Shown here: one piece after another, positions 27,274 to 57,208 of the stretch
How positions within the stretch are numbered: the first letter of the stretch is position 1
How the letters are laid out: each line of letters starts with the position of its first letter
Origin: a virus
DNA: 64,000 nucleotides
Direction: 5' to 3' (one strand)
IMG/VR virus record: IMGVR_UViG_3300044712_002699
Location: 16,744-80,743 of that record
Notes under the pieces: model-generated
Databases searched by the model: none
The model's input: only the letters and a program-made list of their open reading frames with translations
Told to the model about the DNA's origin: nothing
Position numbers and translations under genes: made by a program

Positions 27274-27774
27274 TTATTTAGAGGTATCTCGGACTTGAAT
27301 AAGGCTCTTCTTATTTTTAGGCTGGAGTTTTGAGAGACCGGGTCTCATCGACCTCATCTGGTTAATCTTGTCTCGCGGAGTTTTGGCACCTGCAACTCCT
27401 AAATCTATATCACCACTGAACCAATTTCGGTTATGATAATCTTGAGATTCCTTTCCGCCCACCTGGGTCGCTTGACCGGTACCTGTTGAGGAACCAATGG
27501 CATAGGCTTCTATCTCCTCTTTTTTGTAAGGCGTCTCCATGTCAACTATGGCCGTCTTTTCAATGGGAAAGTTATACCTCTTCGACGGATCATCGGGATC
27601 ACGGCAAAGAATCGTTTTCTGCCCCACACTTAAAATTTCATAATATTTAGGATCATCTTGTAGAATATCACAAGTAATATATCTACCTTGGACGTAACCG
27701 CTCATGTCCATCGGGTTATCCACTATTCCGATAACGGTTTCACACAACTCTATAACATCTTTGGCTCTGAGCAT
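27274..27774 (-). CDS. Hypothetical protein with the shared N-terminal leader
   Basis: 166 aa, starts MLRAKDVIELCE. Confidence 0.7.
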   Translation of the reverse strand: MLRAKDVIELCETVIGIVDNPMDMSGYVQGRYITCDILQDDPKYYEILSVGQKTILCRDPDDPSKRYNFPIEKTAIVDMETPYKKEEIEAYAIGSSTGTGQATQVGGKESQDYHNRNWFSGDIDLGVAGAKTPRDKINQMRSMRPGLSKLQPKNKKSLIQVRDTSK

Positions 27775-27795
27775 TTTCGCCTCGAGAAGTTAAAA

Positions 27796-28881
27796 CTACC
27801 TGTAGAGGAAAGACGCGGACTGAATGATTTTTTCTTCGCTGCTGCGTCTGCCTGGTACCAATATGAGATCATCATATCTACCATAATGAACCGATGCGTG
27901 ACAGTTCCTACAAAGGAGTGCGCACTTATCAAGTTCAGGCTGTATGATGGTTTCCCAGTCTTTACCCCTAAGTTTTCCAATATTATATGTCTTGGAGAAA
28001 GAGTCTATGTGGTGAAAATCATACTTAGCGAAATCATTGGTTACAAGACCACAAATTTGACAACCATTTCCTATGTATTCGACACAGAGTCTTTTGTACA
28101 TATTTGCTCTATCATCATATCTTTGTTTCCATTGGCGGTCTTCGGTAGGTTTTAATCGAGCAATTTGGCTGGTCAAAGAACTGTGACAGGAGGCGCAGAC
28201 AAGAATGCACTTTCGAAGTTCTGGAACGATTATTGTGTCCCAATCTTTATAACGCATTCCGGCAATGCCGTATTCTTTTTCTTCTGGATTTAAGTGGTGA
28301 CAGTCATAAACTTCATACCACTCTGTTTTTAAGCCACAAACTTCACACTTGCCTCCTTTATGCAGAACTACTTTCTTCTTAAATTCGGCTATTGCGAGTT
28401 TGGTACCTGCGCCGTAACATGTTTTACATGTATTAGTTCTGCCGTCTTTGTGCCCGACGTGTTTGCGAAACTCCTCTACGGGTTTTTCCAATCCACACTT
28501 TTTACACCTTTTCTTCCCATTAACTATCTTTGCCAAACAGTTTCGCCTAGCCGGATCCGGATGTCTTCCTTTAATACTGACACAGACTTTACATCTATTT
28601 TTCCGTTCGCCAGTTCCCGTTGTACTCCTGTGAAATTCCTCTAGTGGTTTTTCCAACCCGCAATCCTTACACTTCTTCTTTCCATTTATTACCTCTGCCC
28701 GGTAATTTCTCCTAGATGGATGAGAAATCTCATAATACCTAGATATCGACTTATTACGGCGACATGCTTTACACTCGTTTACCCATCCATCCTTACACCC
28801 TAATTGTTTATAGAACTCACCCAAGACTTTTTCTTTACCACAGTTACAACAAACTTTACTGTTTAAGTGTTCCATATCCAT
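27796..28881 (-). CDS. HNH-type homing endonuclease with three N-terminal CxxC zinc-finger repeats and two tandem HNH-like modules
   Basis: K.C..CG.EK...EF...C..C three times, then CEVCG...DCHHLNPEEK...KCILVCASCH and CQICG...DFHHID...KCALLCRNCH. Confidence 0.8.
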   Translation of the reverse strand: MDMEHLNSKVCCNCGKEKVLGEFYKQLGCKDGWVNECKACRRNKSISRYYEISHPSRRNYRAEVINGKKKCKDCGLEKPLEEFHRSTTGTGERKNRCKVCVSIKGRHPDPARRNCLAKIVNGKKRCKKCGLEKPVEEFRKHVGHKDGRTNTCKTCYGAGTKLAIAEFKKKVVLHKGGKCEVCGLKTEWYEVYDCHHLNPEEKEYGIAGMRYKDWDTIIVPELRKCILVCASCHSSLTSQIARLKPTEDRQWKQRYDDRANMYKRLCVEYIGNGCQICGLVTNDFAKYDFHHIDSFSKTYNIGKLRGKDWETIIQPELDKCALLCRNCHASVHYGRYDDLILVPGRRSSEEKIIQSASFLYR

Positions 28882-28943
28882 GACCTTATCTTAAAGAATT
28901 TAATGAAAGACACTTTCTATCTTAAACTTTCAAAAAATTTTTC

Positions 28944-28972
28944 TTGACAAGCGTTATATCTTGTGATATTAT
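28944..28972 (+). promoter_or_regulatory. Sigma70-like promoter upstream of the ligase
   Basis: TTGACA (28944-49), 17 bp spacer, TGn extension, TATTAT (28967-72). Confidence 0.75.
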
Positions 28973-29001
28973 ATAATACAGATAATACTGAGGAGATTGC
29001 A

Positions 29002-30795
29002 ATGCTGACTAAAGAACAGCTCGATAAAGCAAGTCCAGTACAGTTGGATACCTTCATCCGAAAGTGCTCAAAATCTTACTATGAGGGGAACCCGATTGTC
29101 CCAGACGATATCTTCGACTACGCGCTCGATCTCATAAAGGTAAAAGATCCCTCATCACCTCTTCCGTACTCTATTGGACATGGTTATGTAGTAGACGGAA
29201 CTCTAACCTTGCCTCACAAAGTTGCTACAAGCAGTCTTCCAAAAATACACAGTCTCGGAAAGGTTTCTAGTGATGCTTATGCTACCCCAAAGTTCGACGG
29301 CATGTCTTTTGTGGCTTATTACAATAAAGGCGAAATAGAGAACATTCTAACAAGAGGAGGTGACGAGGCAGCAGGTGAACCTATTTACAACCTTGCATAC
29401 TTCTTCAAACAAAATGGACTGGACAAGATGCCCCCTGAAGTCTTTGCAATCTCAGGTGAAGTTGTGGTCAGGGTCAGCATCTTCCTCAAGAAAATGGACC
29501 AAGAAGTCGGCGGACCTTACGCCAACCCAAGAAGCGCAGCAACTGGTATAGCGCGCTCCAAGTTCCTTCATGAGTTCTATCAAGACTTGGAAGCCAAACC
29601 GTTTCGTATTCACTTCACTGACGGAACTCATGTCAGTATCAAAGATTCGACTTCAAAAGACCTTTTCTTCAAATACTGCAAGATTGATGTTCCATATATC
29701 CCCCTCGAAGGTGAAACCCTGCAAACTCTCCACGATTGGGTTCGCAAATTCGATTACTACACCGACGGTGTCGTCCTAGAAGACCGGGAAGCCTTAAAGT
29801 TCCCTACCGAGTACAAGAAAACGACGATCAAACGGATCGTTTGGAATACCCCCAAGTCAGGTAACCTCATCCCCGTGGCCCACTTTGAAACGGTTCACCT
29901 TTATGGAACCAAAGTTTCTAAATGTACGCTCACTGCGGGTTCCTGGGTTATAGAACATAAACTGGGGGCCGGTGCGATTATCACAGTCACTAAGGCAAAT
30001 GAAATAATCCCCGAGTTCGGCGAGGCTATCGAACCGCTAGAGCGCGGTGAGATTCCAACTGAGTGTCCGGCATGCGGGGGGCCTGTAAGGTGGGGCGTAA
30101 ATGATTGGGACAAACTCCACCTTACCTGCAAAAACAGGTGTATGGTCGAGAAATTCCGAATTTTCACATTCGTCTTCTGCCATGCCGAACTCAAGGGTTA
30201 TAGAAACTCAACACTCGTAAAAATCCTGGACGAGAACGACATCAAGACCTTTGATGATTTCTTGGAAAAAGCCGGAAGTCTAGTCTCTGTCAATCTGACA
30301 GACCACGAAAAAAAATTTCTCGATTACATCAATACCCAGTTTCAGGGAACACTATCTCTTGAAAAGTTCCTGGACTCCCTCAACATCCAAGGTATAGGGC
30401 CAGAGTGGTCGGCGAAGCTGGCTCCATTTATAATTCCCTACCTCCACGGCGGCGGATTATTTCCCTTCAATGTATCATCAAACGTCCAACAGGTTATAGA
30501 CGAAAATAGAGATCTCATCTTGAAAACCTATAATCTCTTTAAGTGGGTTGTTGATGACGGCAACGGTAAGAAAAAGACCCCAGTAACGATTACAGGGGCG
30601 TTAACCCTTCCAAAGGCTGAGTTCTGTCAGAAATATGACCTCGTCCAAGTAAGTATTGGTAAAGCAGAACTCCTCATTACTGCTGACAAATCCAGCACTT
30701 CAAACAAGACAAAGGATGCTATCAAGCGCGGTATCCAGATTATGACTGAAAGGGAGTTTTTGGCTTCTAGGAATGTAAAAATAGATAATCCCTAA
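29002..30795 (+). CDS. ligA: NAD-dependent DNA ligase (compact phage type with C-terminal BRCT)
   Basis: YYEGNPIVPDDIFD (domain Ia), PKFDG adenylation motif, TRG, GE, NPR, DGVV, OB fold (KANEIIP), CPAC zinc finger, BRCT (ITG...KAIKRGIQIMTEREF). ATG 29002 follows a GAGGAG RBS. Confidence 0.92.
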   Translation: MLTKEQLDKASPVQLDTFIRKCSKSYYEGNPIVPDDIFDYALDLIKVKDPSSPLPYSIGHGYVVDGTLTLPHKVATSSLPKIHSLGKVSSDAYATPKFDGMSFVAYYNKGEIENILTRGGDEAAGEPIYNLAYFFKQNGLDKMPPEVFAISGEVVVRVSIFLKKMDQEVGGPYANPRSAATGIARSKFLHEFYQDLEAKPFRIHFTDGTHVSIKDSTSKDLFFKYCKIDVPYIPLEGETLQTLHDWVRKFDYYTDGVVLEDREALKFPTEYKKTTIKRIVWNTPKSGNLIPVAHFETVHLYGTKVSKCTLTAGSWVIEHKLGAGAIITVTKANEIIPEFGEAIEPLERGEIPTECPACGGPVRWGVNDWDKLHLTCKNRCMVEKFRIFTFVFCHAELKGYRNSTLVKILDENDIKTFDDFLEKAGSLVSVNLTDHEKKFLDYINTQFQGTLSLEKFLDSLNIQGIGPEWSAKLAPFIIPYLHGGGLFPFNVSSNVQQVIDENRDLILKTYNLFKWVVDDGNGKKKTPVTITGALTLPKAEFCQKYDLVQVSIGKAELLITADKSSTSNKTKDAIKRGIQIMTEREFLASRNVKIDNP

Positions 30796-30848
30796 TGACT
30801 TTTTGACACGGATGCCTATATTAGTAATAAACTGCAATGGAGGCATCC

Positions 30849-33354: not shown

Positions 33355-33558
33355 TCAGCCCTGAGGCCCCATCGCCCCCGGGGGACGCTTCCAACGGTAC
33401 CGCTCACATTCGACATACCCCTTCTTTCCGTTGGTATATTCACAAGATGGCTCATAGTTTAAACAAGAATCGACCGATTCACACGGAGATTTAGCCACAC
33501 CAATATCTACACGCTGAGAACGGTCTCTCTGTTTATGAATGTCCCTTAAACTTCCCAT
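33355..33558 (-). CDS. Small Cys-containing hypothetical protein with MGSLR N-terminus
   Basis: 67 aa, translationally coupled (TAATG), four Cys. Confidence 0.6.
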   Translation of the reverse strand: MGSLRDIHKQRDRSQRVDIGVAKSPCESVDSCLNYEPSCEYTNGKKGYVECERYRWKRPPGAMGPQG

Positions 33559-34217
33559 TATTCGCCAACGGCTCGCCTATCAATCTTTCCTCCCCAAGAC
33601 GTCTCCAGAAAATCTAGAGAATCGGAAAGGGAACCGTAGGCGTAATCGAGAACTTTATCAAGAATCCCATCTCGTGTCAAGTCAATTCCGAGCAGATCAA
33701 ATTTTTCCAGAGTGCCAGAACTAATCCTAAAAGGATCGGGCTGTTCCTGAGCAGCCTCCTCTGCGCGCATCCCTGCTTGCAGATCATACTTTTTAGACAA
33801 AGCCCGTGCTATCTGAGGGTCACAGATAAATGAGAGAGATGACTTGTCAGGAGAGTACGCCTCGACTGGGAAATAGTGTGGATAAGAACTATCCAGTCCC
33901 ATCTCCCTCATCTGAGCGACGAATGATGTATGGACGTAACCGTACTTCGAGGCAGCGTTGCTGAACCGATAGAGTTTGGCACGATCTTTCCGGCTGATAT
34001 CCCCAAATTTGAGTGTGACTCGGTAAGACTCCGGAGAACAGAATATCTTAGCAACCGTAGCCTCATCGCTGACGAGGCCGACCCTCTCAAGATTGTGAGC
34101 AAAAACCACAAGTTTGATAGAGTCTGTCTCTGTGTTTCCATAGACCGCGACACAGTCCAATTTCTGTTCGATGATTCTAGCGATTCCAGGATAAAGATCT
34201 ACTAGCGTCTTAGCCAT
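33558..34217 (-). CDS. Hypothetical protein
   Basis: Start MAKTLV at 34217 overlaps the upstream TGA. GGAGG RBS. Confidence 0.65.
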   Translation of the reverse strand: MAKTLVDLYPGIARIIEQKLDCVAVYGNTETDSIKLVVFAHNLERVGLVSDEATVAKIFCSPESYRVTLKFGDISRKDRAKLYRFSNAASKYGYVHTSFVAQMREMGLDSSYPHYFPVEAYSPDKSSLSFICDPQIARALSKKYDLQAGMRAEEAAQEQPDPFRISSGTLEKFDLLGIDLTRDGILDKVLDYAYGSLSDSLDFLETSWGGKIDRRAVGE

Positions 34218-34702
34218 CACTTCCTCCAAGGTATTAAGACTTGCCCCAACTTGAACGCGTTCTTCAGATACTCATACGCATCATTAAGAAGACCTTGTTT
34301 GGGAACAGGGCGGTTTCGATAGTTCCAACTAGGTTCGCACTCTTTTTTATTCTGAGGACACTCAGGCCCGCACGTCCCTGTTCCGGGGTGACACTGCCAA
34401 GGCTGCGGTAGGTTCGGTTGGGATACTACATTGTGAGTATGATTTGCCCTCGCGGCTGACGGGGCTGAGCCCTGCCAACCAGGCCCAGACACTACAGGCC
34501 CACTACCTTTAGCGCCGCGAGGACCTGTTGGCGTAGCGGGAGGTCCCACGTAAGGCTTACCTGCAGGTCCGGTGGGGCCGAAGACGACATTGACTGGGCC
34601 TGTCATACCCCAAGGAGTATGGACTGCTTCTTCAGGCTCAGGGACATACTTAGGAACGAACGAACTATGCGCTTCTCTACGAATATCTCTTAGACTGCCC
34701 AT
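34217..34702 (-). CDS. Pro/Gly-rich hypothetical protein with MGSLR N-terminus and a Cys cluster
   Basis: 161 aa, downstream of a TTGACA promoter at 34769. Confidence 0.6.
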   Translation of the reverse strand: MGSLRDIRREAHSSFVPKYVPEPEEAVHTPWGMTGPVNVVFGPTGPAGKPYVGPPATPTGPRGAKGSGPVVSGPGWQGSAPSAARANHTHNVVSQPNLPQPWQCHPGTGTCGPECPQNKKECEPSWNYRNRPVPKQGLLNDAYEYLKNAFKLGQVLIPWRK

Positions 34703-34781: not shown

Positions 34782-37700
34782 TTAGTGCGCTCCCGCTTTC
34801 TGGAGGAGGGAAAGGAGACGCGGCGCGCCTATATTCTGAGCAAGTTCTAGGAGAGAAGCACCAGATTTCATTTTCGGGTTGGGGTTTGCTCCTTTATCAA
34901 GGAGATACTGAGCAACTTTGAACTTACCAAGACTCACAGCATACCAAAGAGGTGTTCTACCGTCATCGTCCGAGGCTTCTATATCAGATCCATTCGAGAG
35001 GAACAAATCTATTACTTGAAGGGCCTCGGGTTTCTTACTCTCTATTGCTCTCATAAGGGCTGTCTTACCAGTGGAAGTCCTCTCCTGAACATCTCCGCTT
35101 GCTCCGTGCTTGGCAAGGTACATAACAAGTTCGAGGTCTTTCCTGGCATCAAAAGCAGCAATAAGGAGAGGATCGCCATCCTTGGTGTACGCATAGTCTG
35201 CGCTTGCTCCGTATTGGAAAAGGAGATCGGCTAATTTGTAATCAGATACGGTAACCTGCCCTCTTCTATACTGCCACTGGCTTACAAGAAGAGCAGGAAT
35301 AAGGGCAGTCTCTTTAGAATCGTTCTGATCGTTAGGATCTTCCCCTTCCTTCAAGATATACTTGATTGTGGCAAGAACCTTGTTCTTATCAATCTTTTCT
35401 CTCTCAGCATACCACTGATCTCGGTGAAACTGCCGGATAAGATGCATTAACAAGGTATCACCATAATCGCCTATCCTGTTTTCAAGGTGCGCTCCGTTGT
35501 TTAACAATTCATCTGCGATATCGAGGTCACCCTGAAGAAGTGCATGAACAATCAGAGTATTCCCGTCGTCTAGTTCGATATCAGGATCAATACCATCATC
35601 CATAGCCTTCTTCACAGTCGTAAGATCGTGATTAATAACCGCATCCACAAGCATTACTTCCTGAGGAAGGTTGAGGCGATGAGTCACTTCGTTATCAAAC
35701 ATCACGCTCTTAGCATTGAGAAGTTCCTTCTCATCGATTTCCTTGAAAACACCAGCGGTCTTCGCCTTCTTAAGAAAATCCAAGACATAGTGATGAAAAT
35801 CATCGTCAACAAGACCATCGCCTCGACCGCGTATTGCAGTAATTTTCTTAGACTGCTGGTTGAGAAAAATTATAACCTGACCTCTGTCCTGTCTGTCTCT
35901 GAGACAATAGATAACAAGCTTCTTATTCGCAACATCCTCTTCATGTTTATTGAGTTGTTCATCCTCTTTCTCATCACTGCTGCTGTAATAGCTGCTATAA
36001 GATGAAGATTTTATTCTGACCTTCATCTCCTTGAGAGCAGATTTAATTTCCAATCCACTGTTCAGGATTTCCCACTGAAACCCGTTGGGGTAGTCCTTGA
36101 GGGGGATGCGCCCGATTATCTCGGAAGAATGAATGTCCCTATCGACTCGAGTATCACCTACCTTCATTGCATTGAGAGACTTCTCATATATACCAAAATC
36201 TTTTACGCCGAGTTTCTTAAGAAGAGCATAGAAATATCCTCTGTCTTGGGAGCGTATCACATCCCCATATCCAGCTTCTTTTCCATCTTCGCCGATCCCG
36301 GCTATTCCATCTATTCTGTACTTGGAAACGTCACCGTAATCCGAGCCGTATGTGGATAGACCTAACGCTCCGATAACCGATGATCCATCCTTGAGAGCAT
36401 AGATAAAGTCTTTTCCCGAAGTAATATCTCTCAAATTACTCCCATTGGCTTTGAACTTATAATCATCCTTAAGGGTCTTACATATCTCGCTTAGTTGACT
36501 CACTGTATAAACAGGGTACCACGCAAGCCCACCTGAGAAAGTTAAGACCGGGTCCGGGTCTCCAACGATGTCTTCATAATTTTCATAGGAAAGATAGGAG
36601 CCTTTGAAGTAAATAGACCCAATCGCGTCGAGATAACTTCCATCGATTTGTGTGATGTGTTGGTTATTCAAAAACTCAATAACGTAAGGTTTGAAACTAT
36701 CTTCAACGTCTCCGCCAAGCTCCAGACCTCGGAGATACTCTACCTTAGAGCCATTAACTATTGCAATAACTCGAGAAGATTCTCCCGAGTCTCTCAAGCT
36801 GTAGAAATTGCCCTTACTTATCGAATTCGAAAGCGACCATGAATCTGTCTTGCCTTTATAAGGAATTATTTCTAGGTCTATTTCGTCCTTGTTTTTAAGG
36901 TAAATCCACCTGATTCCGCTGGGCCAACTCATAACGTCCGGCACATCAAGAAGGCGAGCCCCCGCCTCTTCAGGAGTATGAAGTTCTCCATTGATCAGAT
37001 AACCGCCAATATTTTCATATTCCTTGCTGCGATTATACTGGTCGGAATACGTGAGGTAACCTTCCTCTTCCTTAATACTTTTCAAAACATCATAACAATA
37101 AGACCAGTACTTCGTTTCTACCTTTCCCCCAGTATCTAAACCGCGGATAATGGTTACTGTTCCACTATGATTTATGAGGATCACTGCGCGGGGGTTGCTT
37201 CCGGAGTCCTCAAGAACCATTAACTTCGATCCACCATTAATAAGGCTATATTCCAGACGTAATAGGTCAACACCAAATGTCTGACGTACCTCTGAAATGT
37301 CTTCTTCGAGGAACAGATTAATCCACCTCAAACCATTACCGTATGATTTCCTAACCAAACTCTCCGCCGTAGTAATTTGCCTAAACTCATCCCGACTCAT
37401 TACTCTGTCTTGATAGAGAACTGCCCCAACTGCGACAAGTAGTTCCGAATGTTCCTCAAGTCTGGATTGATAAAGTTCGTTCAATAAATCGTAACAGGGA
37501 GGCCAATATTGCTCTCTAACCATATTGCCAACATTAGACGTCACCGAGGTTTTAATATCCTGACGAATATCTCTACCGTCACCGCCGATGTTGGTGGGAT
37601 AAGTTTTATTTACTGCAATCAAGGCTCTAGTCTGGCCCGAAGAATCTTTCAAGAGGTAGGTTCTGGGTTTGTCAGGATCTCCGACTATCAGTTTACTTTC

Positions 37701-40108: not shown

Positions 40109-40441
40109 TCAGTGTCTATGCTTAATCCCAAAATCAATTTCGAGTTGTTTCAAATCAATAGCCCAATGTTTCACGCTGTGGTGGAGATTGTCTACAGAAA
40201 TACGGGTGAGCATCTCATCCCATGTCTCTTCTTCAATAGTATCTTTTGCTTCTTTTAAACCAGCGCCGGAGACTTGCCGGAGCAATTTTATAGCGAGTAT
40301 TTTCCTGTTTTTACGTTTATACAACGTTTCTAAGAGCAGACTAATTCGATCCCTGATGCTGTTCCACTCTTCGATCTCGGCCTGAAGCCTCACCTGCTCC
40401 TCTTGATATGCTTTAGTAGCCAAAGTTCGTAGCGAACCCAA
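40109..40441 (-). CDS. Protein with a ribosomal protein L7/L12 C-terminal-like motif and MGSLR N-terminus
   Basis: KILAIKLLRQVSGAGLKEAKDTIEE matches the bL12 CTD signature K.I..IK..R...G.GLKEAK..VE. TTG start with GGAG RBS. Confidence 0.75.
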   Translation of the reverse strand: MGSLRTLATKAYQEEQVRLQAEIEEWNSIRDRISLLLETLYKRKNRKILAIKLLRQVSGAGLKEAKDTIEEETWDEMLTRISVDNLHHSVKHWAIDLKQLEIDFGIKHRH

Positions 40442-46482: not shown

Positions 46483-47016
46483 CTACCGCGGCAGCATTTT
46501 AGAAGATGATCTAATTGTAGTCTCTCCTAAAATTCTTTCCATTTCTCTCGGTGATAACCAACTCTTAAATGCTCCGGGATGTTTTTCCCATCTATCAGGA
46601 AAATCAAGTCCTCGCCACGATTTATGCGATTTTACGCGTTGGATTAGCTTATGAATTACTTCAGCAGGATTAGAAGTATAGGAGGATTCGTCAATTTTAA
46701 TTGAATAGTGTCCTTCTAGTTGGTGTTGAGTCATACTAAAAGCAGCAATTTTGAGACTAGGTAACAACATATAAGTATCTCTGTCAGGCGCATGTGTTGA
46801 TTCGCCATACAGGTGAAGGTCAAAGACGTGTCCAGGATACTCTTGCCAACCAAGGTGGGGTCCTCCAAACACACTCTTTCCCTCTGCTACAATATGAAAG
46901 GGGTGTTCTGACGTTACATAGAGTTTGAACCCCCACGCATCCCACTCTTTCTCTTGATCTGATCGCTTTCTAAATATGTCGAGAACTGACTCAATGACTT
47001 TATTCGCGGTTATCAT
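46483..47016 (-). CDS. Hypothetical protein with the shared leader
   Basis: Starts MITANKVIE|S. Confidence 0.65.
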   Translation of the reverse strand: MITANKVIESVLDIFRKRSDQEKEWDAWGFKLYVTSEHPFHIVAEGKSVFGGPHLGWQEYPGHVFDLHLYGESTHAPDRDTYMLLPSLKIAAFSMTQHQLEGHYSIKIDESSYTSNPAEVIHKLIQRVKSHKSWRGLDFPDRWEKHPGAFKSWLSPREMERILGETTIRSSSKMLPR

Positions 47017-47317
47017 AAGAGAAACCTTCCTTAAGTGAGGTGACGTCCCTTGCCTGAAGTATCTTTCTCGACACGTCCGAGAAAAGATTAGCCTTATCCA
47101 CGTCTCCTTGAGTCATATAAGCCCAGGCTTTCATAACATAGCGAGAATATTCTTTTTGGAGAATTGAGATTGCTTTGTTTTTGTTCCCATCAGCAGCATC
47201 AAGTGCCCATTCAGTGATTTGCTCAGGAGAGGCAGCAACCCAATCAGGGGTTTCTTCCTCTTTCTTCTTTTTTTTCTTTACCTCGGAAAGTTCCAAGAAT
47301 GCTGACGCCTTTGACAT
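47000..47317 (-). CDS. Hypothetical protein with the shared leader and a poly-Lys stretch
   Basis: MSKASAFLELSE|VKKKKKKEE. Confidence 0.65.
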   Translation of the reverse strand: MSKASAFLELSEVKKKKKKEEETPDWVAASPEQITEWALDAADGNKNKAISILQKEYSRYVMKAWAYMTQGDVDKANLFSDVSRKILQARDVTSLKEGFSYDNRE

Positions 47318-47372: not shown

Positions 47373-47945
47373 ATGAGTGACCCAATAGTAATTCCTGTCG
47401 TTGGAGTTATCGACGATGAAATGGCTAAAGTCATCATAGAGAAACTTTATACCTGTCTTCTAACGAAAAAGAATGTTCATATCCCAATATATTCCCCGGG
47501 CGGAGACGGTGACCAGATTTTCGGGGCAATAAGTCTCATTAGAGAAATGGAGCAGCATCATCTTATAGTCACCACAATCAACGTCGGATACGCCTTCAGT
47601 GCTGCTGCAATGCTCCTAATCGGAGGAACTGTGGGCCATAGATATGGTTTACCTGGCTCAGATATTATGATTCACCGAGGAACTTGGAGAATTGAAGTCA
47701 CCGGAGACACCGCTGATACAGTCTTTGATTACAGTGCTCGAGCGAAGCAAAAATTTGAAGATTTCTATACCTCAATAAACGGAGACCGAAAGAAAATCCT
47801 GAAATGGTTACGGAAAGATACCTATTTTACGACTGATAAAGCCCTGGAAGAGGGTTTAATAGATCAAGTCGGGTCTCCTTCGACAAACCCCCGAGCCGTG
47901 AGCCAGTTGGGTAGGTCTTCCAAGAACTCATCCAAAGACTCATAA
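47373..47945 (+). CDS. clpP: ClpP-like serine protease
   Basis: IYSPGG, GYAFSAAA (catalytic Ser), IMIH (His), RKDTYFTTDKALEEGLIDQV (Asp). Confidence 0.88.
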   Translation: MSDPIVIPVVGVIDDEMAKVIIEKLYTCLLTKKNVHIPIYSPGGDGDQIFGAISLIREMEQHHLIVTTINVGYAFSAAAMLLIGGTVGHRYGLPGSDIMIHRGTWRIEVTGDTADTVFDYSARAKQKFEDFYTSINGDRKKILKWLRKDTYFTTDKALEEGLIDQVGSPSTNPRAVSQLGRSSKNSSKDS

Positions 47946-48202
47946 CCCGTGGGACGACCTGTTATAATTCCAAGCCTTGGGTTAACGGCCCCTATTGAGT
48001 AGAACCCATTGTGTTCGTCTACAACGAGGGTACCTCCCTTAGGTGTCAAAAAACCGACCGCAGTCGCCATATTTGTAGGTAAATTGGGCACCGGTTCTGG
48101 AATCCGAGACACGCCAAACTTGTTGAGAGTAGCCTCTATTCTAGGATCCAAACTAGGCCCCATCGATTCATTCAATAGGCACTGAACGTCAATTGCTTTC
48201 AC
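47864..48202 (-). CDS. Hypothetical protein with a possible leader (LLNE|S)
   Basis: 112 aa, coupled to the speE stop. Overlaps the clpP 3' end convergently. Confidence 0.5.
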   Translation of the reverse strand: MKAIDVQCLLNESMGPSLDPRIEATLNKFGVSRIPEPVPNLPTNMATAVGFLTPKGGTLVVDEHNGFYSIGAVNPRLGIITGRPTGYESLDEFLEDLPNWLTARGFVEGDPT

Positions 48203-49038
48203 TTCGTCCTCAATAAGTCCTCCACAAATACTGGCACGGCAAGAGCCGCTTTGTGGACATCTTTGGTATAGTATTTAAGACCCTCAGGAAGTTTACGCTC
48301 CATAAGATAATAGGGATCCGCTTCCTCTGAACAAATTGTTGCTGTCCAATAACCGCTAGGATAACTCGGTGTGGGAAAAAACATTGGTTGGGCCGTGTAA
48401 GAAAAAACATTACTCAGTGACTTAACAGTTGCCCCGAAAATACCTGGCATAAATAGTGGCGACTCGGTCTGAAAAACGGCTGCTCCATACTCGGCTAGAC
48501 TGTTCTTAACTGTTACAAAGAACTCTTCTGTAAATAAAGAAGCTCCAGGACCCACTGGATCGGTAGAATCCACAATAACAAGGTCATAAACTCCCACAGC
48601 CCTCTGCAGAAAATAAGCCCCGTCTTCATTCACAACTTTGACTCGATCATCGTCTAATCCGCTGGAAATTTCAGGGAAGAACTCTCGACCGATCCTCACG
48701 ACTTCAGGATCAATTTCACAAAGAACTATTGATTCTATCTCCGGGTATTTGACCAGTTCTGTCACAATACCCCCGTCCCCGCCACCGATAACTGCCACAT
48801 CTTGAACTCTGCTAGATACGCTCATCGCTGGGTGGACCATCATCTCGTGATAGATAAATGAATCGTTACACACCATAAAACAGCCGCCTAGGATAAGTAC
48901 TCGACCTAAGGATACGCTGTCATAAACTTCAATTCTCTGAAACTCACTTCGAGTGTCGTAAATTTTACTGTGATAGCGAAAAGAAAAAGCAGTAGAGGCG
49001 TCATAAATTTCAGTAAACCAGTTCTCGTTTGAAAGCAT
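48199..49038 (-). CDS. speE: Spermidine synthase (polyamine aminopropyltransferase)
   Basis: SEFQRIEV, IYHEMMVH, VIGGGDGG, CEIDPEVV, IVDSTDPVGPGASLF, PSYPSGYW. Confidence 0.95.
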   Translation of the reverse strand: MLSNENWFTEIYDASTAFSFRYHSKIYDTRSEFQRIEVYDSVSLGRVLILGGCFMVCNDSFIYHEMMVHPAMSVSSRVQDVAVIGGGDGGIVTELVKYPEIESIVLCEIDPEVVRIGREFFPEISSGLDDDRVKVVNEDGAYFLQRAVGVYDLVIVDSTDPVGPGASLFTEEFFVTVKNSLAEYGAAVFQTESPLFMPGIFGATVKSLSNVFSYTAQPMFFPTPSYPSGYWTATICSEEADPYYLMERKLPEGLKYYTKDVHKAALAVPVFVEDLLRTK

Positions 49039-49063: not shown

Positions 49064-50995
49064 TTACACGCCTAACATATCGCCAAACCTATTTTCAAAT
49101 TGGAACAATTTGTCATACTCGTCCTCACCAAAGACTGTGCGCTGAGGTAATTTTTGGGACTCCATCTGAGTGGAAAAGTATTCAAAAGCATTTTGTTTGT
49201 AAAGTTCCATCAACGTAAAATATACTCCGGCACACGCATCAGCAATGTCTTTTCCAACACTACCCTCGTCGGGGTGATCAATTTTCTTTCCGGTATCCCT
49301 AAGGTTTTCAAGTTCCTTGTAAAGAATCGGATGACCTGGAAGCTCCGTCCTCTCTTCATAGATAGAGTTTTTGAACGAAATATAAGGTAGTTTAGTCTTA
49401 TCGAGAGATACCTCTTTTATTTCAAAGCCCACTCTCTTCATTAGCTGAAGCATATCTGTGCTCTGATAACTATCTGCCTGAATTATACCTATGGGAAAAC
49501 CCATACGAGCCAGGTCAAGAATAAGTTTTCTGACCTTAAAAAACGGTATCTGAAAAGAGCTTCCTCTTAAAATGCCCAACGCAAGTTCTATCCTAACCAC
49601 AGGTTCGGTAACAATGGCCTGCCCAGTAAGCTCCATTTGAACCGGGTCTCCCCGAACAATTTCCTTCAATCCGCAGATACACCCCATAGCAAAGCCAAAC
49701 GCATCATGTGTTCGTGACATATCAAGATGGATAACTCTCTTTGCCATTGGGTTCTTATGAAGATAAGTCAGAAGATAGTCCTCTTGTATATAATCCAGTA
49801 GTTGGTCATCATCATCAAAAGAAAGCTTCAAATAATCTCCCCGGCAAACATTGACGACCTTTCTCATAGCAGTCTTTACTAGTTCCGTATTAGGAAAGAA
49901 CTTGAACTTTGAAGTTGTTGAGACGCCAGCAAGGTCTCGGATAGCCATACCGATATCTGTCTCAAAGACATCCCTGTGTTCTATGGGAACATCTATCACT
50001 AGACTATCATCATACCTTAGAAGCTCATCGGGGCGCTTGATAATTACAGGTTCTTGGGTTTGATTTCCAACGAAAACTTGAAATGTCTCTCCACAGTAAA
50101 CTCTCTTTCCGTTGGGTTTAACCACATCCTTTTTAACATCAAAAATACAAGCATCAATAATAAGACTTGTCTCGACATTCTTCTTTCGGATAGTTTCGAT
50201 TCGAGTCTCAAGGAAGTCAGATTCGTCTCTCTTAGATGAAACTAGGAATATCTGGCCCGGAAGATTCCCGCCAACTTTTCCTTCTTCTTGAGCTTCTTGA
50301 AAACGAGATGAAAGTCGGCCTCTAATAGAATTGTAAATCTCGTATACCTTTTGGGCACCGCTCTTTATTGTCTTATTGAAACTCGTTTCATCGAGAATAG
50401 CCCCGAAAACGGCTCGACCCAAGGTATGTTCGACCTTAGATGCCATACAAAGCCCAACATTATTCGGGAGTACAATCTCGACTTCTTCAGGTCGCTTATT
50501 CTTAGGAACCTTTTCTGTTGCGTTGATGCTCTGAAAATATTCAGAAGCAGAAAGCATATTGTTAATGTATTTCCATAAGACGTCAACAACCAAATCGAGA
50601 GTGATGTTAACGAGCAAGAACTTTATATCTACCGCGTTACTCAAACCATAGGTTCTATGGGGATTGTCCAGCAGGCTAACCCGATACATCGAATAGATAG
50701 TGCTCACCACTGCAAACGTGGTTTTACCAGTTCCGATAGAGCCCGTTACAAGACATTCATTATATTGAGACGGTACTAGGGGATGAGGATATAGTTTTTT
50801 AAGCCATTTTTTCCAGTAGGGGTAGAATCCGCCTACGTCTTCGAAGGAGTTGGCAAGAAAATATGGATCGTCAAGGAATGTTATAATATCTACTGGGGCT
50901 TCAATATACCCTTCAAGCTCTGCCCACAGCTGCTCTTTCTCCGCCTTATTCATCGACTTGAGCATTCTGTCAAGTTCATTATCTATTTTAATCAT
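49064..50995 (-). CDS. terL: Terminase large subunit
   Basis: Walker A TGSIGTGKT, Walker B AILDE, LVSS motif III, nuclease IHLDMS...D, DSYQS, KIDHP...KDIADA. Confidence 0.9.
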   Translation of the reverse strand: MIKIDNELDRMLKSMNKAEKEQLWAELEGYIEAPVDIITFLDDPYFLANSFEDVGGFYPYWKKWLKKLYPHPLVPSQYNECLVTGSIGTGKTTFAVVSTIYSMYRVSLLDNPHRTYGLSNAVDIKFLLVNITLDLVVDVLWKYINNMLSASEYFQSINATEKVPKNKRPEEVEIVLPNNVGLCMASKVEHTLGRAVFGAILDETSFNKTIKSGAQKVYEIYNSIRGRLSSRFQEAQEEGKVGGNLPGQIFLVSSKRDESDFLETRIETIRKKNVETSLIIDACIFDVKKDVVKPNGKRVYCGETFQVFVGNQTQEPVIIKRPDELLRYDDSLVIDVPIEHRDVFETDIGMAIRDLAGVSTTSKFKFFPNTELVKTAMRKVVNVCRGDYLKLSFDDDDQLLDYIQEDYLLTYLHKNPMAKRVIHLDMSRTHDAFGFAMGCICGLKEIVRGDPVQMELTGQAIVTEPVVRIELALGILRGSSFQIPFFKVRKLILDLARMGFPIGIIQADSYQSTDMLQLMKRVGFEIKEVSLDKTKLPYISFKNSIYEERTELPGHPILYKELENLRDTGKKIDHPDEGSVGKDIADACAGVYFTLMELYKQNAFEYFSTQMESQKLPQRTVFGEDEYDKLFQFENRFGDMLGV

Positions 50996-51013: not shown

Positions 51014-51502
51014 TTAGATACCTAGAGACCGCTCATAGGGGTCTATTTGTCCTCCATGTACATATTTTCCGTTATTTAACAGAACTACCGCTCCCATGTC
51101 TTTAAGTAGTCCCCACGAAATAGCACTAACTTCTTTATATAATCTGCTGTTAATCTTGTTATCTGCTAGATATCTTGACATAAGACCCGTTGCAATACCC
51201 AAACCGGAGATTATTCTGCCGCCGCCGTGAGATTGACCCGTCAGGGCTAGTAGTATTATGCCCGCGACTGTCCCTGCTATAACTCCTCCAAGCATCATTG
51301 AAAATTTCACCAGGGACGGGTGTTTATTAACAAAAGAAGGATTGTCTAAGATATAGATATTTGCGACTCGAACAACCTCATCGTTTGATATGAGATGCTT
51401 GTAGACGACTCGCTGACCCACCCTAAGATTTTCCGTGTTATTCCTATGTCGATCCCACAGTGCTTCGTCACATTCTTTGATGATTTCTTTCGCAGTAGTC
51501 AT
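51014..51502 (-). CDS. Hypothetical protein with the shared leader and two hydrophobic segments
   Basis: MTTAKEIIKECDE|A; MMLGGVIAGTVAGIILLAL and IISGLGIATGLM. Confidence 0.7.
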   Translation of the reverse strand: MTTAKEIIKECDEALWDRHRNNTENLRVGQRVVYKHLISNDEVVRVANIYILDNPSFVNKHPSLVKFSMMLGGVIAGTVAGIILLALTGQSHGGGRIISGLGIATGLMSRYLADNKINSRLYKEVSAISWGLLKDMGAVVLLNNGKYVHGGQIDPYERSLGI

Positions 51503-51510: not shown

Positions 51511-52035
51511 CTAGAGTTTATAGAACTGACGACTCAGCCTATCAATAGTTGGAATTGTCTGAGTAGATGGAGTAATTTCTTTACGAGTATCTTTAGCCAA
51601 CTCAGCCTTTTTCTTGTCTTGATTAATAGATTTGGTTCCTATTTTTATTGACACTGACTGAACCTCTTTTGCACTTGTGTTATCTTCCCCTTCAATATCT
51701 ACCGGGGGATATCCAGTGCCGTCCGGCTGCACCCAACTCCGAGGAAAGTTTATACTCTTAACATCTTCATAGGACATTATCTTCTGGAATTTCTCTTTAA
51801 GAGATTCAAATGCTGCCTTTGCTTTCTTTTCATCATCAAAGAACTTAACTTCTTTTCCACTCGATCCGGTTGTATAGTATGTTCCAGTAATCTCTTTGCC
51901 TTTCGTGAATTTAAGTTCAATAGCCCAGGCGGGAGCCTTAGAATAAGAAAGTAGACTTAACTTAGCCTCACCTTTAACAAGGCCAATGTCCTTCGCTTCA
52001 TTGAGATAGGTTAAGATTTGTTTTGCTGTTACCAT
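51511..52035 (-). CDS. Hypothetical protein with the shared leader
   Basis: MVTAKQILTYLNE|A. Confidence 0.7.
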   Translation of the reverse strand: MVTAKQILTYLNEAKDIGLVKGEAKLSLLSYSKAPAWAIELKFTKGKEITGTYYTTGSSGKEVKFFDDEKKAKAAFESLKEKFQKIMSYEDVKSINFPRSWVQPDGTGYPPVDIEGEDNTSAKEVQSVSIKIGTKSINQDKKKAELAKDTRKEITPSTQTIPTIDRLSRQFYKL

Positions 52036-52037
52036 AG

Positions 52038-52454
52038 TTAATACAGGTCAAAAAGATTTTCTGTGCGCCTAAGTCCGCGTATGAAAGACGCTAGTTTAGG
52101 AAAAGTCTGGTCAAGGGCTGGATAATAGTTAGGATGTTCGGACTCCGTGGTATACATCTTATCACTGGCGTTTACCGTTCCTAAGACGTAAAAACCGCTT
52201 CCGCTGCCTTCAAATCGGTCATGAGTAGCCCGGTAGGCACACCAGACCTTCAACACGTCTTTCCTCGGATCATAAAGAAACCGTAGTAACGGATCCTTCT
52301 TGAACTCTAGTACTGGGTCTCGAATATCGTCTTTGAGATCAACTAGGGCTTGGGATAGTGAAGAGGGGTCTCTACTGTAAAGAACTGGCCTGGGGCCGTA
52401 AGAAATGTCTGCAGACTCTTGGATACAAGAGAGGATGTATCTAGCACTAATCAT
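52038..52454 (-). CDS. Hypothetical protein with the shared leader; tandem paralog of 52451..52888
   Basis: MISARYILSCIQE|S; DPSS...DLKDDIRDP...RFLY...WCA..A.H. Confidence 0.75.
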   Translation of the reverse strand: MISARYILSCIQESADISYGPRPVLYSRDPSSLSQALVDLKDDIRDPVLEFKKDPLLRFLYDPRKDVLKVWCAYRATHDRFEGSGSGFYVLGTVNASDKMYTTESEHPNYYPALDQTFPKLASFIRGLRRTENLFDLY

Positions 52455-52888
52455 CGAAACCTCACGTCTCCATACTGTGCTACCCGCTTTAGACCTGACT
52501 CGAATCGAACGAGTCTCGGGTATAATGAATCCATCGAAGGGTTATAGTTTGTATCAAATGATTGTGTAAAAAATACTCTTCTCGATGCGTCTATCGTGCC
52601 AAGTATGTCTGCCCTTGACTGTGAAAAATCTCTATGTATAGCCTTCGCAGCACACCAAGCCGTGAGTTTGTCGGAATCCTTGTTGTAGAGAAACCTAATC
52701 AGCGGCTCTTGCCGAAAATTGACGTCAGGGTCGCGTATGTCATCTTTGAGGTCGCGCATTACTTCTGAGAAAGAAGAGGGGTCGTCGCTAATAGAAATAG
52801 GCCCCTTTTTAGGGTCTACCCGTGCAATCGCCCACTCCTCAGAGAATAGATCCAAAATCTTATCTAGTAGTGTTCTGGCTGTTATCAT
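52451..52888 (-). CDS. Hypothetical protein with the shared leader; tandem paralog of 52038..52454
   Basis: Start MITARTLL at 52888 (TAATG coupling). Same DLKDDIRDP core. Confidence 0.75.
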   Translation of the reverse strand: MITARTLLDKILDLFSEEWAIARVDPKKGPISISDDPSSFSEVMRDLKDDIRDPDVNFRQEPLIRFLYNKDSDKLTAWCAAKAIHRDFSQSRADILGTIDASRRVFFTQSFDTNYNPSMDSLYPRLVRFESGLKRVAQYGDVRFR

Positions 52889-53382
52889 TATGCTGACCAA
52901 AAACTAATTGAGTCTTCAGGAAAATCACCGCTTACCAATTTAAACATTTGTTCCTCGATTTCGGGGTTCGGAAAATCAGTGATTCGGATCACCGTTTTTA
53001 CCTCATTCAATTCCCCGAAAAAGATTAGGCTCGCCTTTTTTCTGTCGGAACTCTGCTGAATTAAGACCCCCTCACTTTCTTTTATAAGCCTTGGTAGAGT
53101 CGTAAAAAATGTATCGTGTTCTACTCGATGGTTAAGAAACTCAGTTAGTTCAGGAAAATACTCTAGGGCTCTATTGGCTTGTTTAGGAAGAAAATAAGCC
53201 CTCTCTGAGAGGAGCCCCATACCTAGAATATTTAATAAGGCCCTGACACTTCCTAAACCCCCTATCACTGCCCCTGTAGGTGTAACAGAGAGACCGGCAA
53301 GTTCTGCCAGTTTGGTCATACCCGCCAATCCTAGGGCCTCATCTATTTTATAAAGTATGCTTTGAGCCGTTATCATCTTCAT
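52888..53382 (-). CDS. Hypothetical protein with the shared leader and a Gly/hydrophobic segment
   Basis: (MK)MITAQSILYKIDE|ALGLAG...GAVIGGLG. Confidence 0.7.
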   Translation of the reverse strand: MKMITAQSILYKIDEALGLAGMTKLAELAGLSVTPTGAVIGGLGSVRALLNILGMGLLSERAYFLPKQANRALEYFPELTEFLNHRVEHDTFFTTLPRLIKESEGVLIQQSSDRKKASLIFFGELNEVKTVIRITDFPNPEIEEQMFKLVSGDFPEDSISFWSA

Positions 53383-54221
53383 TACCCGCGTAGTCTTTTT
53401 CTAACGTAGTGCGTTGGAGCCCCGGGTCTTAACATATGGATAGATCCAAAACTTACTGCATCTGCTCCCATCATAAAGGCTCGATGAATGTCTTCGTAGC
53501 ACCAAATATCAGGGAGTATTAGTGGGACCTTAGAGTCGTTAATAATTTGACGAGCAGCCTTCCAGTTAACCTCCTGTGCCGCTTGGCCTGAGACTCCTCC
53601 TCCACCTAAGTGTTGAAGTGGAGATTTCTTATTAGGAAAAACAAGAGACCACGGAACAGAATTGAGAGTAACAGCGTCTAGGCTATTAGCAACTTTGGGG
53701 ATAAGATACACCTGTTCAGAGTTGAATTTTCCAATCAACCCACAACTTGCTCCGATCATTTTTCTAACTGATTCGCAAGTCTCTACAATTTCTTCAGGCT
53801 CATTCTTTTTGAACGTGGGGCAAGAAAAATTTAGTTCAATCCCATCAAGTGGAAAACCTCTTGTCCGGCCCACCATCATTCGAATCTCGTACATACTTCC
53901 TGCTAAACTTATAACTAGAGGCGGTTTTTTCCTACTCCCATTCAAAAATCCTTCGGGAAAATTTCTCATCCACCTGTCTATACCTGGATTAGGGAGACCT
54001 AAAGCGTTTACAACTCCGCCGCGTATCAATCTTACTGCTGAGAGGTTTCCTGTCTTAGGCTCTAGAGTTAGCGTTTTTGAAACTACGAGGAAGAGGTTAG
54101 GATTGATTAGTCCGCACCAAACTAGAGGGCGCTCCCAAGGCCATCCTTGTCCATAAAACCCCAGAGCGCCGGAAGCAACAACAAATTCGAATTCAAGACC
54201 ATTGGGGAAACGTATCATCAC
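53382..54221 (-). CDS. pyrD: Dihydroorotate dehydrogenase-like FMN enzyme (class 1)
   Basis: VVASG, SKTLT, NALGLPNPG, ELNFSCP (catalytic Cys), GGGVSG, GADAVSFGS. Confidence 0.8.
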   Translation of the reverse strand: MMIRFPNGLEFEFVVASGALGFYGQGWPWERPLVWCGLINPNLFLVVSKTLTLEPKTGNLSAVRLIRGGVVNALGLPNPGIDRWMRNFPEGFLNGSRKKPPLVISLAGSMYEIRMMVGRTRGFPLDGIELNFSCPTFKKNEPEEIVETCESVRKMIGASCGLIGKFNSEQVYLIPKVANSLDAVTLNSVPWSLVFPNKKSPLQHLGGGGVSGQAAQEVNWKAARQIINDSKVPLILPDIWCYEDIHRAFMMGADAVSFGSIHMLRPGAPTHYVRKRLRG

Positions 54222-54885: not shown

Positions 54886-55275
54886 TTATTCGTCTTTAAG
54901 ACTTCTCCATATCTCATCATTTGGATAGGATATCCCTTCCGCCCCTCTTTCTTTTGCATCTCGTAAAAGCCTCCCATACGCAAAGAGAACCTCAGCAAGA
55001 GAGGGGTAATCATTGAGTAGTGAGTAGCCAAAATCTTTGTTATTGTCGTCCCTGGATACTCTCAGAACGATTCTGCACCCAGGCTCTACTGGTATTTTTT
55101 CAAGGACAAGATAATAAGCGTAACCATTCCGATCCGACCATTCAAAATAACTCTCATTGTCGAGCGAAAGGTGGCTACCTGGGTTCAAGACTTCCGTTCC
55201 CCTCACAAAAGAGGAGTACCTGTCGTCTCCAAGGGCTTCTACAATCTGCTCGATTATTTGGTTAGAAGTGATCAT
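54886..55275 (-). CDS. Hypothetical protein with the shared leader
   Basis: MITSNQIIEQIVE|A. Confidence 0.7.
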   Translation of the reverse strand: MITSNQIIEQIVEALGDDRYSSFVRGTEVLNPGSHLSLDNESYFEWSDRNGYAYYLVLEKIPVEPGCRIVLRVSRDDNNKDFGYSLLNDYPSLAEVLFAYGRLLRDAKERGAEGISYPNDEIWRSLKDE

Positions 55276-55278
55276 AGT

Positions 55279-55800: not shown

Positions 55801-55817
55801 AAAGAAGTCCTACTTGA

Positions 55818-56126
55818 TTACGGCAAGGCATCCTGAAGGAGTTGCTTTAGGGCTGAAATTTGTGTGGTATGTCTACGGGATAACTGGTCTTGAATAGACG
55901 AAACAAGATCAGCAAGTCCTGATCCCGTCTCGGCAATTAAGTCGCTGTCTTGTATAACTTGCAATCTGTCAGCACCTCCAACTGATCCAAAAAATTTGAA
56001 GATGTAAGTGCTATTAAAGCCTGCTACGTATTTAAGATTAGGCATTAAGTCTGCTGGTGTTGGAGATGCCCAGACAAGAATATCCTGATTAGTAGCTTCT
56101 ACAAAAACTGCAATAATATCTTCCAA
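55818..56126 (-). CDS. Hypothetical protein
   Basis: 102 aa, TTG start with AGGAG RBS. Confidence 0.55.
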   Translation of the reverse strand: MEDIIAVFVEATNQDILVWASPTPADLMPNLKYVAGFNSTYIFKFFGSVGGADRLQVIQDSDLIAETGSGLADLVSSIQDQLSRRHTTQISALKQLLQDALP

Positions 56127-56137
56127 GGGAGAATCTC

Positions 56138-56764
56138 CTAAATGTCGTAAGGGATAGCGTCCCAGTCTACCGGAAAGCCAATCTCGGAAAGACCGCCTGT
56201 TTGAGCCCTATCGGCTAAAGTACCAAATTCTTGGTATTGTTTTGAGAACTCAACCCTAAATGACCTTCTGTGGACGTATACCCTAACATCTGCTTGGTTA
56301 AATCTATGCCCAAACTTGATTTTGTTATCCCGGCGGTTTTCGGGTCTGCTCTTTATTCCTTTAGTAATTATTAGTCTAATCCCAGGAGGCGGAGTGTAGG
56401 TTTGCTGCGTAAAACCAAACATCCAGTTATCGACTTCCGTTAGGGTTAGAAGGCATTTTGATTCCTTACCCTCAATTACTTCATACCAAGAACAGTCCCC
56501 TAGATACGGATCAAAGTGATAATTCCATATCTCTTTTGTCTCAACCTCGTGAGATTGAGTCTTATCATCTGCTAAATCAATTTTATCAGGAACTTCAGAC
56601 GGGACAAAATCCGTACCGTCGTTTTTTGATAGGAGGTCAAGTTCCTTTTTCTTTTTGATTTTTCTCAAAGCAGTCGCCCCAGCTATTGCACGAGGAACGA
56701 CCTTAGACCCTGACAGGGCTTCAAATATATCTCTCGCAGTAATTATTTTGTCTCGATCTGACAT
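56138..56764 (-). CDS. Hypothetical protein with the shared leader, offset by six residues
   Basis: MSDRDKIITARDIFE|A. Confidence 0.7.
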   Translation of the reverse strand: MSDRDKIITARDIFEALSGSKVVPRAIAGATALRKIKKKKELDLLSKNDGTDFVPSEVPDKIDLADDKTQSHEVETKEIWNYHFDPYLGDCSWYEVIEGKESKCLLTLTEVDNWMFGFTQQTYTPPPGIRLIITKGIKSRPENRRDNKIKFGHRFNQADVRVYVHRRSFRVEFSKQYQEFGTLADRAQTGGLSEIGFPVDWDAIPYDI

Positions 56765-56794
56765 TATGCCAAGACTCCAGGGAGTGATAATAGA

Positions 56795-57208
56795 CTAACC
56801 GGTTGTATCCCAAAAGGGAGTAGCCGATGGGTTAGGCCCACCCTGATTACAAATCTTGGCTATTTCCGGCCATCGAAGCTGACATTCAAAGTCTTTGTCG
56901 GGGTTAGCCTTCAAAAAGTCTATCCAATTCTCGTAACCCTCAGGAGAAAGTTTCGGGATTCCGAGAAACTTGTCGGTCGGCCCAAACAGTTTCATGTAGG
57001 CTTCGAGTTTCCAGCCCTCAAGAGCGGCAGGGGTCGTGAAGGTACGCATTCCTGTCTTGAATACAAAATTATTGTTCTCAGAATCATATCTACAATAGCC
57101 TGGAATACTTCTCCCTGACAGAAAAGACTCACTCATTACAGACTCGAGTTCTTCGGTGAGGGTTTCTGCTTTACTCTTAGGCCCTATGGGGATTCTAATT
57201 TTTGGCAT
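56795..57208 (-). CDS. Hypothetical protein
   Basis: 137 aa with AGGAG RBS; ...SKAETLTEELESVMSE|S. Confidence 0.65.
   Translation of the reverse strand: MPKIRIPIGPKSKAETLTEELESVMSESFLSGRSIPGYCRYDSENNNFVFKTGMRTFTTPAALEGWKLEAYMKLFGPTDKFLGIPKLSPEGYENWIDFLKANPDKDFECQLRWPEIAKICNQGGPNPSATPFWDTTG

Follow-up and report, generated by a model that had tools for sequence, protein, structure and literature searches.

A shared N-terminal leader on unrelated proteins of an uncultured phage, a probable T4-type capsid-targeting tag

Introduction

Why would a phage place nearly the same short peptide at the start of many proteins whose bodies are otherwise dissimilar? The question is raised by a 64,000-nucleotide stretch of viral DNA (hereafter the window), which comprises bases 16744-80743 of one 80,743-bp virus contig (IMG/VR record IMGVR_UViG_3300044712_002699; L001 denotes the whole contig). 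A first-pass annotation of the window had noticed a recurrent N-terminal leader and had read it as a distinct address tag that loads proteins into the phage head, by analogy with the internal proteins of T4. Our analysis indicates that the leader is shared across an uncultured lineage and that it is probably a T4-type tag for capsid targeting and cleavage, with many more carriers than in T4. The phage itself is uncultured; a rhizosphere metagenome, probably the source sample, is the only sequencing run that holds the entire stretch as DNA, and no RNA data are listed for the stretch among the sequencing runs.

The T4 tag, MKTYQEFIAE (PMC8442874), has been dissected by residue: positions 4 and 7 serve targeting and positions 8 and 10 processing, and with Asp at position 10 the tag still targets its protein, though it is no longer cut (PMC9026906). 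T-even phages carry diverse internal proteins with only this tag in common (PMC3012670), and their variable internal-protein genes bearing sequences like the capsid-targeting sequence have been read as the product of an arms race with host defences (PMC3012670, PMC9026906).

Results

The leader is enriched at N-termini and is constrained as protein

All 13 main leaders of the first-pass annotation are present where it placed them, and they lie on the minus strand, as do nearly all genes of the window; the last of them begins at 56746, inside an open reading frame (ORF) that starts at 56764. The consensus is M-x-[KT]-[AS]-x-x-[ILV]-[IL]-x-x-[IL]-x-E-[AS], with positions 3-4, 7-8 and 11 conserved best. 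The main class is 13 residues long and ends in Glu followed by Ala or Ser, and a short class has its Glu at position 9 or 12. Six leaders in the window have Glu13 and then Ala or Ser, in agreement with the earlier count. A loose form of the pattern directly follows the start codon in 15 of 74 ORFs, against 0.59 expected from its frequency at internal positions (28 matches in 24,641; Fisher p=3.7e-15), an enrichment at the N-terminus that rules out chance as the source of the shared leader. When all six reading frames were considered, 13 of the 20 matches that begin on a start codon were found to head real long ORFs. A leave-one-out position matrix likewise recovered 13 N-termini at p<=0.0015, and the copy at 56746 scored 15.2 bits under this scheme, higher than all 22,939 internal positions. 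Three weaker cases proposed earlier did not hold up: those at 54502 and 57208 reached p-values of only about 0.04-0.06, and the one at 48202 was unranked.

The residues around the presumed end of the leader are constrained as well. Glu occupies position 13 in 7 of 14 leaders of this contig and in 9 of 15 leaders from other contigs (described below), and Ala or Ser occupies position 14 in 8 of 14 and 11 of 15, respectively. Ten of 14 leaders here, and 9 of 15 in relatives, contain the combination hydrophobic-x-Glu-[Ala/Ser/Thr] within positions 6-15, compared with a background of 2.9% of random 10-residue windows (p=4e-13 for the leaders here). The helical hydrophobic moment of the leaders is also higher than that of internal 12-mers (0.42 versus 0.27; p=1.6e-4). 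Synonymous codons for the conserved residues differ freely among copies and the upstream DNA is unrelated, and therefore selection acts on the protein; the same observations rule out a DNA-level cause such as a repeat or a translation signal. A late-promoter motif suggested earlier, YGTCTTTC, is not enriched (9 matches against 5.9 expected, a number reached in 12 of 100 shuffles). Across the whole proteome, the leader matrix matched strongly at just one internal site, VTKANEIIPEFGEA at residue 342 of the nicotinamide adenine dinucleotide (NAD)-dependent ligase (28963-30795, plus strand), and this match is probably due to chance.

The leader is shared across an uncultured lineage, where it lies among head genes

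We assembled 160 terminase-anchored loci from metagenomes and IMG/VR, with the qualification that the patterns used in the metagenome scan were general and yielded only terminases at most 36% identical to that of the window. Closest to the contig's own proteins are capsid proteins at 92%, 77% and 64% identity and a terminase at 80%, and a 179-kb contig carries one of these relatives. The same leader heads three to six small proteins in each of four independent contigs (L006, L007, which is the same as L092, L008 and L106), whose terminases are 32-36% identical to that of the window; examples are MSKASEILKKIRE then S, MSRASQLLQRLYE then A and MNKSKEILRFIAE then A. A matrix trained exclusively on the 15 leaders of these relatives, covering positions 3-14, found 13 N-termini in our contig at p<=0.0016. 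Its top score was 20.8 bits, whereas none of 22,495 internal positions exceeded 14.2 bits. Thus, the motif is shared across a lineage.

The leader genes of these relatives lie between or beside the genes for terminase, portal, a conserved core protein, the protease-scaffold protein and the capsid protein. This placement is the arrangement of T4 genes 20-67-68-21-22-23, in which 67 and 68 stand between 20 and 21. Three leaders of L006 have Gln or Lys at position 13, a departure to which we return below. Maribacter phage Molly, a cultured relative, has no such leader in its head region, and Rhizobium phage RHph_TM39, another cultured relative, has one similar start, on a gene downstream of the capsid gene. 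The nearest cultured phages lack the leader expansion.

An unbiased comparison of N-terminal 12-mers within each of 114 loci gave 44 similar pairs versus 5 at an internal control position, and the similar pairs were concentrated in this genome (13 pairs) and a few others. Other terminase-related lineages have shared N-termini of their own on several proteins beside head genes: starts of the MRLVD/MKLVE type in L086 (positions 13235, 14834, 19012, 19452 and 19790) and L087 (3214), MIIKL-E in L040, and MII-R-KYFA in L082. Their sequences suggest lineage-specific tags, as would be expected if a tag co-evolves with a phage-encoded receptor.

The contig also encodes a gp21-type protease and a Gp23-family capsid protein

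The first-pass annotation had proposed looking for a gp21-like protease and for a Glu-Ala site in the capsid and scaffold proteins. Such a protease is encoded on the contig, just outside the window (L001 5376-6905), as the first part of a protease-scaffold fusion of 509 residues that matches PHROG 207 (1.9e-26) and, narrowly above the cut-off of 27, Pfam S77 (27.3 bits). An AlphaFold2 model of residues 1-220, computed from a 58-sequence alignment, reached a mean confidence (predicted local distance difference test, pLDDT) of 82.5, and its top Foldseek match was T4 gp21 (5JBL; E 2.5e-9, probability 1.0, target template modelling score 0.71), followed by herpesvirus proteases. A phmmer search of the protease against PDB sequences missed gp21, so that the kinship came from the fold search. 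His78, His90 and Ser133 are invariant in the 58 homologues. The protease family also conserves [ILV]-E-E-[AS] at residues 16-19, which resembles LIE-9, an N-terminal site discussed for T4 gp21 itself (PMC9026906). A complex prediction from an alignment of the 40-residue leader region and the protease-scaffold alignment scored 0.00, a value that speaks neither for nor against an interaction. In the C-terminal half of the protein, LGTPxEI recurs about every 26 residues within helical or coiled-coil repeats, and by its sequence this region looks like scaffold. Such fusions of protease and scaffold occur widely (2658 relatives at E<=0.001).

The Gp23-family major capsid protein is encoded nearby (L001 3112-4563, also just outside the window; PF07068, 1.6e-18; PHROG 138). 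Its model is of low confidence (pLDDT 63.9), and the best structural matches are to T4 gp23 with Z of 11-12. About 70 residues at the N-terminus of the protein form a helical region. With a model of this quality the maturation site is placed only roughly, near residues 70-85. The model also contains an immunoglobulin-like insertion domain at residues 152-252, which matches T-cell receptor variable domains at Z of about 7.

The carriers differ in body and size

Leader proteins in the window, all encoded on the minus strand, are mutually unrelated in their bodies by BLASTP, as the first-pass annotation had stated, apart from one tandem pair (52038-52454 and 52451-52900; 41% identity). Pfam and PHROG scans of ten leader proteins gave no reliable family, and the isoelectric points and hydropathy of the bodies follow no common trend. 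The first carrier, of 166 residues (27274-27774), begins MLRAKDVIELCE then T (p=4e-5 with the leave-one-out matrix and 0.0016 with the relatives-trained matrix) and has no Pfam or PHROG family. The largest, of 1488 residues (34782-39248; leader p<1/22,939), begins MIKSRQIFE then T and contains a PcfJ-like domain (PF14284, 1.4e-13) and C-terminal ankyrin repeats (Ank_2, 2.2e-32). Shortly downstream of the portal gene lies a protein of 258 residues with a TTG start (41774-42550), which begins (M)TTARSIIKLSRE then A; it has no reliable family, and the ESM Atlas gave just a weak ParB_N-like lead (score 0.89, few features in common). The protein of 134 residues at 42561-42965 begins MSKAKELLELLE, followed by a Gly-rich stretch, scores 16.7 bits with the relatives-trained matrix and is like the small Gly/Ala-rich post-portal leader protein of L007 in place and composition.

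Two overlapping genes follow: one encodes a protein of 177 residues (46483-47016) with the short-class leader MITANKVIE then S (leave-one-out p=0.0002), and the other a protein of 105 residues (47000-47317) that begins MSKASAFLELSE then V and continues with a Lys/Glu-rich stretch (p=0.001 by leave-one-out, 0.0015 with the relatives-trained matrix). Adjoining the terminase gene, a protein of 162 residues (51014-51502) begins MTTAKEIIKECDE then A; it has no relative among 5.8 billion proteins, yet terminases 80% identical to its neighbour exist. Next come a protein of 174 residues (51511-52035; MVTAKQILTYLNE then A; 14.7 bits with the relatives-trained matrix) and the tandem pair, whose members have 138 residues (52038-52454; MISARYILSCIQE then S) and, from the ATG at 52888, 145 residues (52451-52888; MITARTLLDKILD then L, with Asp in place of Glu at position 13). 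The leave-one-out and relatives-trained matrices both recovered the leaders of a further protein of 162 residues, counted from the ATG at 53376 (52888-53376; MITAQSILYKIDE then A), and of one of 129 residues (54886-55275; MITSNQIIEQIVE then A). In the protein of 208 residues at 56138-56764, the leader IITARDIFE then A stands behind a six-residue extension, MSDRDK. Beyond the window, the contig has two extra leaders, at 9640 (MRKSRDVLDAINE then A) and 7250 (MKASTVLRAVNE then S, which fits with residue 2 missing) in the numbering of the contig.

Genes around the leaders

Enzymes, terminase, portal and giant proteins were said to lack the leader, and the matrix scores agree. The large terminase subunit (49064-50995, minus strand; 643 residues) has the Walker A motif GSIGTGKT and the conserved columns of its family, and annotated phage terminases are 32-35% identical to it. 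Many of its relatives (P0034, P0036, P0043 and others) contain intein splicing domains (PF14890); the window's copy contains none. The portal protein (43181-44830, minus strand; 549 residues) was recognized by its similarity to the annotated portal of Rhizobium phage RHph_TM39 (27.6% identity, E 7e-48) and gave no Pfam or PHROG match; in relatives the portal comes after the terminase. Its description as gp20-like was not borne out, as similarity to T4 gp20 is undetectable and the identification comes via the Rhizobium phage portal only. The head gene block is split: terminase and portal lie in the window, and protease and capsid protein about 50 kb off, past three giant proteins that are paralogous to each other.

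The window encodes a NAD-dependent ligase, a nucleotidyltransferase, two HNH endonucleases, a spermidine synthase, a dihydroorotate dehydrogenase (DHODH)-like protein, a methionine aminopeptidase and a ClpP-family protease. The HNH endonucleases (27796-28881 and 44943-45785) are paralogues with 39% identity, and one lies directly upstream of the portal gene. Spermidine synthase (48199-49038), the DHODH-like flavoenzyme (53382-54221) and methionine aminopeptidase (57279-58136) are interleaved with leader genes and terminase. The ClpP-family gene (47373-47945; PF00574, 1.5e-22) stands alone on the plus strand within a minus-strand block, inside the leader-rich region, and the Ser, His and Asp motifs are visible in its sequence. 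A second shared N-terminal motif, MGSLRDI or (M)GSLRTL, heads three otherwise dissimilar proteins of 67, 161 and 110 residues (33355-33558, 34217-34702 and 40109-40441; minus strand); its codons differ, and thus it is not a DNA repeat.

Discussion

The leader as a probable T4-type targeting and cleavage tag

The explanation that we favor is a T4-type system in which an N-terminal amphipathic helix (residues 3-4, 7-8 and 11) would attach a newly made protein to the scaffolding core while the prohead assembles. The gp21-type protease, which is joined to the scaffold, would then cut after Glu13 (or after position 9 or 12 in some copies), and the body would stay inside the capsid after removal of the leader. 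Circumstantial support comes from the protease and the capsid protein on the contig, the Glu site, and the placement of leader genes within the head block of relatives. What can be read from the sequence comprises a shared N-terminal leader that is conserved in distant relatives, a protease of the S77/assemblin fold, a hydrophobic-x-Glu-small site, and a Gp23-type capsid protein with a scaffold, all of which fit the T4 type. Core binding, cleavage, presence in the virion, ejection into the host and an effector role of the bodies are steps that we infer.

In T4, as here, short N-terminal tags stand on unrelated proteins and have the layout M-x-K/T-x-x-x-hydrophobic-hydrophobic, then Glu and Ala or Ser (PMC9026906, PMC3012670). 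The residues used in T4 for targeting (4 and 7) and processing (8 and 10) correspond to the positions most conserved in our leaders. The same layout is seen in the propeptides of T4 gp24 (MAKINELLRE then S) and gp22 (MLKEQLIAE then A), as read from the T4 genome, and in those of its internal proteins, so that the leader is hardly a distinct tag. Both phages also have a protease with the gp21 fold, a capsid protein of the Gp23 family, and small genes for tagged proteins next to those for portal and protease. They differ in consensus, in the extra helical turn of most leaders here (Glu13 rather than Glu10), in the number of carriers (about 15 on 81 kb versus a handful in T4), and in the fusion of protease to scaffold; the core proteins are akin to those of T4 at the profile or fold level only, and in contrast to T4 our system is known from genes alone. 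Diverse, fast-changing bodies with the tag alone in common likewise recall the internal-protein genes of T-even phages, although here the phage belongs to another lineage, sampled from a rhizosphere, and no function is known for the bodies. The tagging principle is thus already known, and the novelty lies in the lineage, in the consensus and in how many proteins carry the tag.

Giant phages offer a second precedent. In phiKZ, 201phi2-1 and SPN3US, many head proteins are cut after Glu by a gp21-related protease, and the propeptides of inner-body and ejection proteins are thought to target these proteins into the prohead (PMC5694885, PMC10052503). Those propeptides are mostly longer than 100 residues, share no single sequence and have Ser, Ala or Gly at P3. 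The leader here, in contrast, has one 13-residue consensus (individual leaders are 9-13 residues long) and a hydrophobic P3, and it does not fit the phiKZ type.

Several observations weigh against a T4-type tag. L006, with its Gln or Lys at position 13, is an exception to the hydrophobic-x-Glu site and indicates that cleavage after Glu is not universal. Many leader genes of our contig lie among metabolic genes and not among head genes. In the capsid protein, the candidate site IDE-A (residues 33-36) is not conserved among homologues, and Glu72, though nearly invariant, is preceded by Pro, unlike typical T4 sites. Kinship with T4 is very remote (BLASTP against T4 gp20, gp21 and gp23 is at noise level), and thus the rules of T4 may not transfer. 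Lastly, the leader resembles the lambda O N-terminus recognized by ClpX, and a ClpP gene lies in the region. On balance, the interpretation of the leader as a T4-like head tag gained from the protease, the capsid protein, the Glu site and the gene placement in relatives, and lost the gp20-like portal, the claim of distinctness and the weak cases.

A broader possibility, which we regard as plausible though less likely to be right than wrong, is that phages with gp21-type proteases, including T4, all use an ancient, modular tag for head targeting, of which the leader is one lineage's form. Such a tag would have the layout M-x-K/T-x-x-x-hydrophobic-hydrophobic, one or two helical turns, and Glu followed by Ala or Ser. 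The leader and the T4 tag agree in layout and at key positions, but peptides of this length do not distinguish shared ancestry from convergence.

Alternative explanations

We considered the possibility that the leader proteins are structural, with an N-terminal assembly helix in common, and are built into the core, head or neck, being neither cleaved nor injected as effectors. The carriers in relatives are small proteins within the head gene block, the leaders of L006 lack Glu13, a similar start occurs on one Rhizobium phage gene downstream of the capsid gene, and T4 gp67, gp68 and gp22 are core proteins and not effectors (PMC5694885). However, our contig has fifteen carriers with unrelated bodies of 105 to 1488 residues, including a PcfJ/ankyrin protein, and one carrier lacks any homologue despite relatives with an 80% identical terminase, a turnover that poorly fits conserved structural parts. 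Glu13 followed by Ala/Ser14 is moreover kept across lineages. We therefore consider a purely structural role unlikely.

Another explanation is that the leader is a degradation tag, recognized at the N-terminus by a ClpX-type unfoldase, which together with the phage ClpP would give the proteins a short, timed life. Flynn et al. (2003) reportedly identified the N-termini of lambda O and Dps as recognition signals, with the pattern polar-Thr-hydrophobic-basic-hydrophobic. Both proteins are substrates of ClpXP (PMC5415555). The N-terminus of lambda O, MTNTAKILNFGR, has T-A-K and I-L in common with the leader, so that both begin with Thr-Ala-Lys followed by hydrophobic residues, and the ClpP-family gene at 47373-47945 could supply the peptidase. 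The register differs, however: the spacing is off by one residue relative to lambda O, and although Thr-Ala-Lys/Arg is present, a polar residue comes next in almost every copy. The conserved residue 11 and the Glu13-Ala/Ser14 end have no role in such a tag, which also leaves the placement in the head block unexplained. The contig has no ClpX gene, no ClpP was found in the loci of leader-bearing relatives, and the shared N-termini of other lineages are quite different. Together these points make a degradation tag improbable, somewhat more so than a structural helix.

Least probable is that a modifying enzyme recognizes the leader, as the presence of the DHODH-like flavoenzyme and methionine aminopeptidase among the leader genes might suggest, since no radical-SAM (S-adenosylmethionine) or known peptide-maturase family occurs among the proteins scanned and the terminase and head protease are the only enzymes beside the leader genes of relatives.

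Implications

If the leader functions like the T4 tag, it singles out the proteins that an uncultured phage carries in its capsid. The tagged proteins would then be prime candidates for anti-defence or host-takeover factors, all carriers here being ORFans, and the leader would provide a second, sequence-distinct packaging tag for engineered protein delivery by phage capsids. The principle of capsid targeting would reach well beyond the T-even phages; its rule (key positions 3-4, 7-8 and 11, then Glu-Ala/Ser) appears to be conserved, with lineages seeming to use their own versions. Should the leader in addition be one form of an ancient tag, the set of encapsidated and injected proteins of uncultured phages could be read from sequence alone, and about one fifth of the genes on this contig, including that for the 1488-residue PcfJ/ankyrin protein, would encode capsid cargo.

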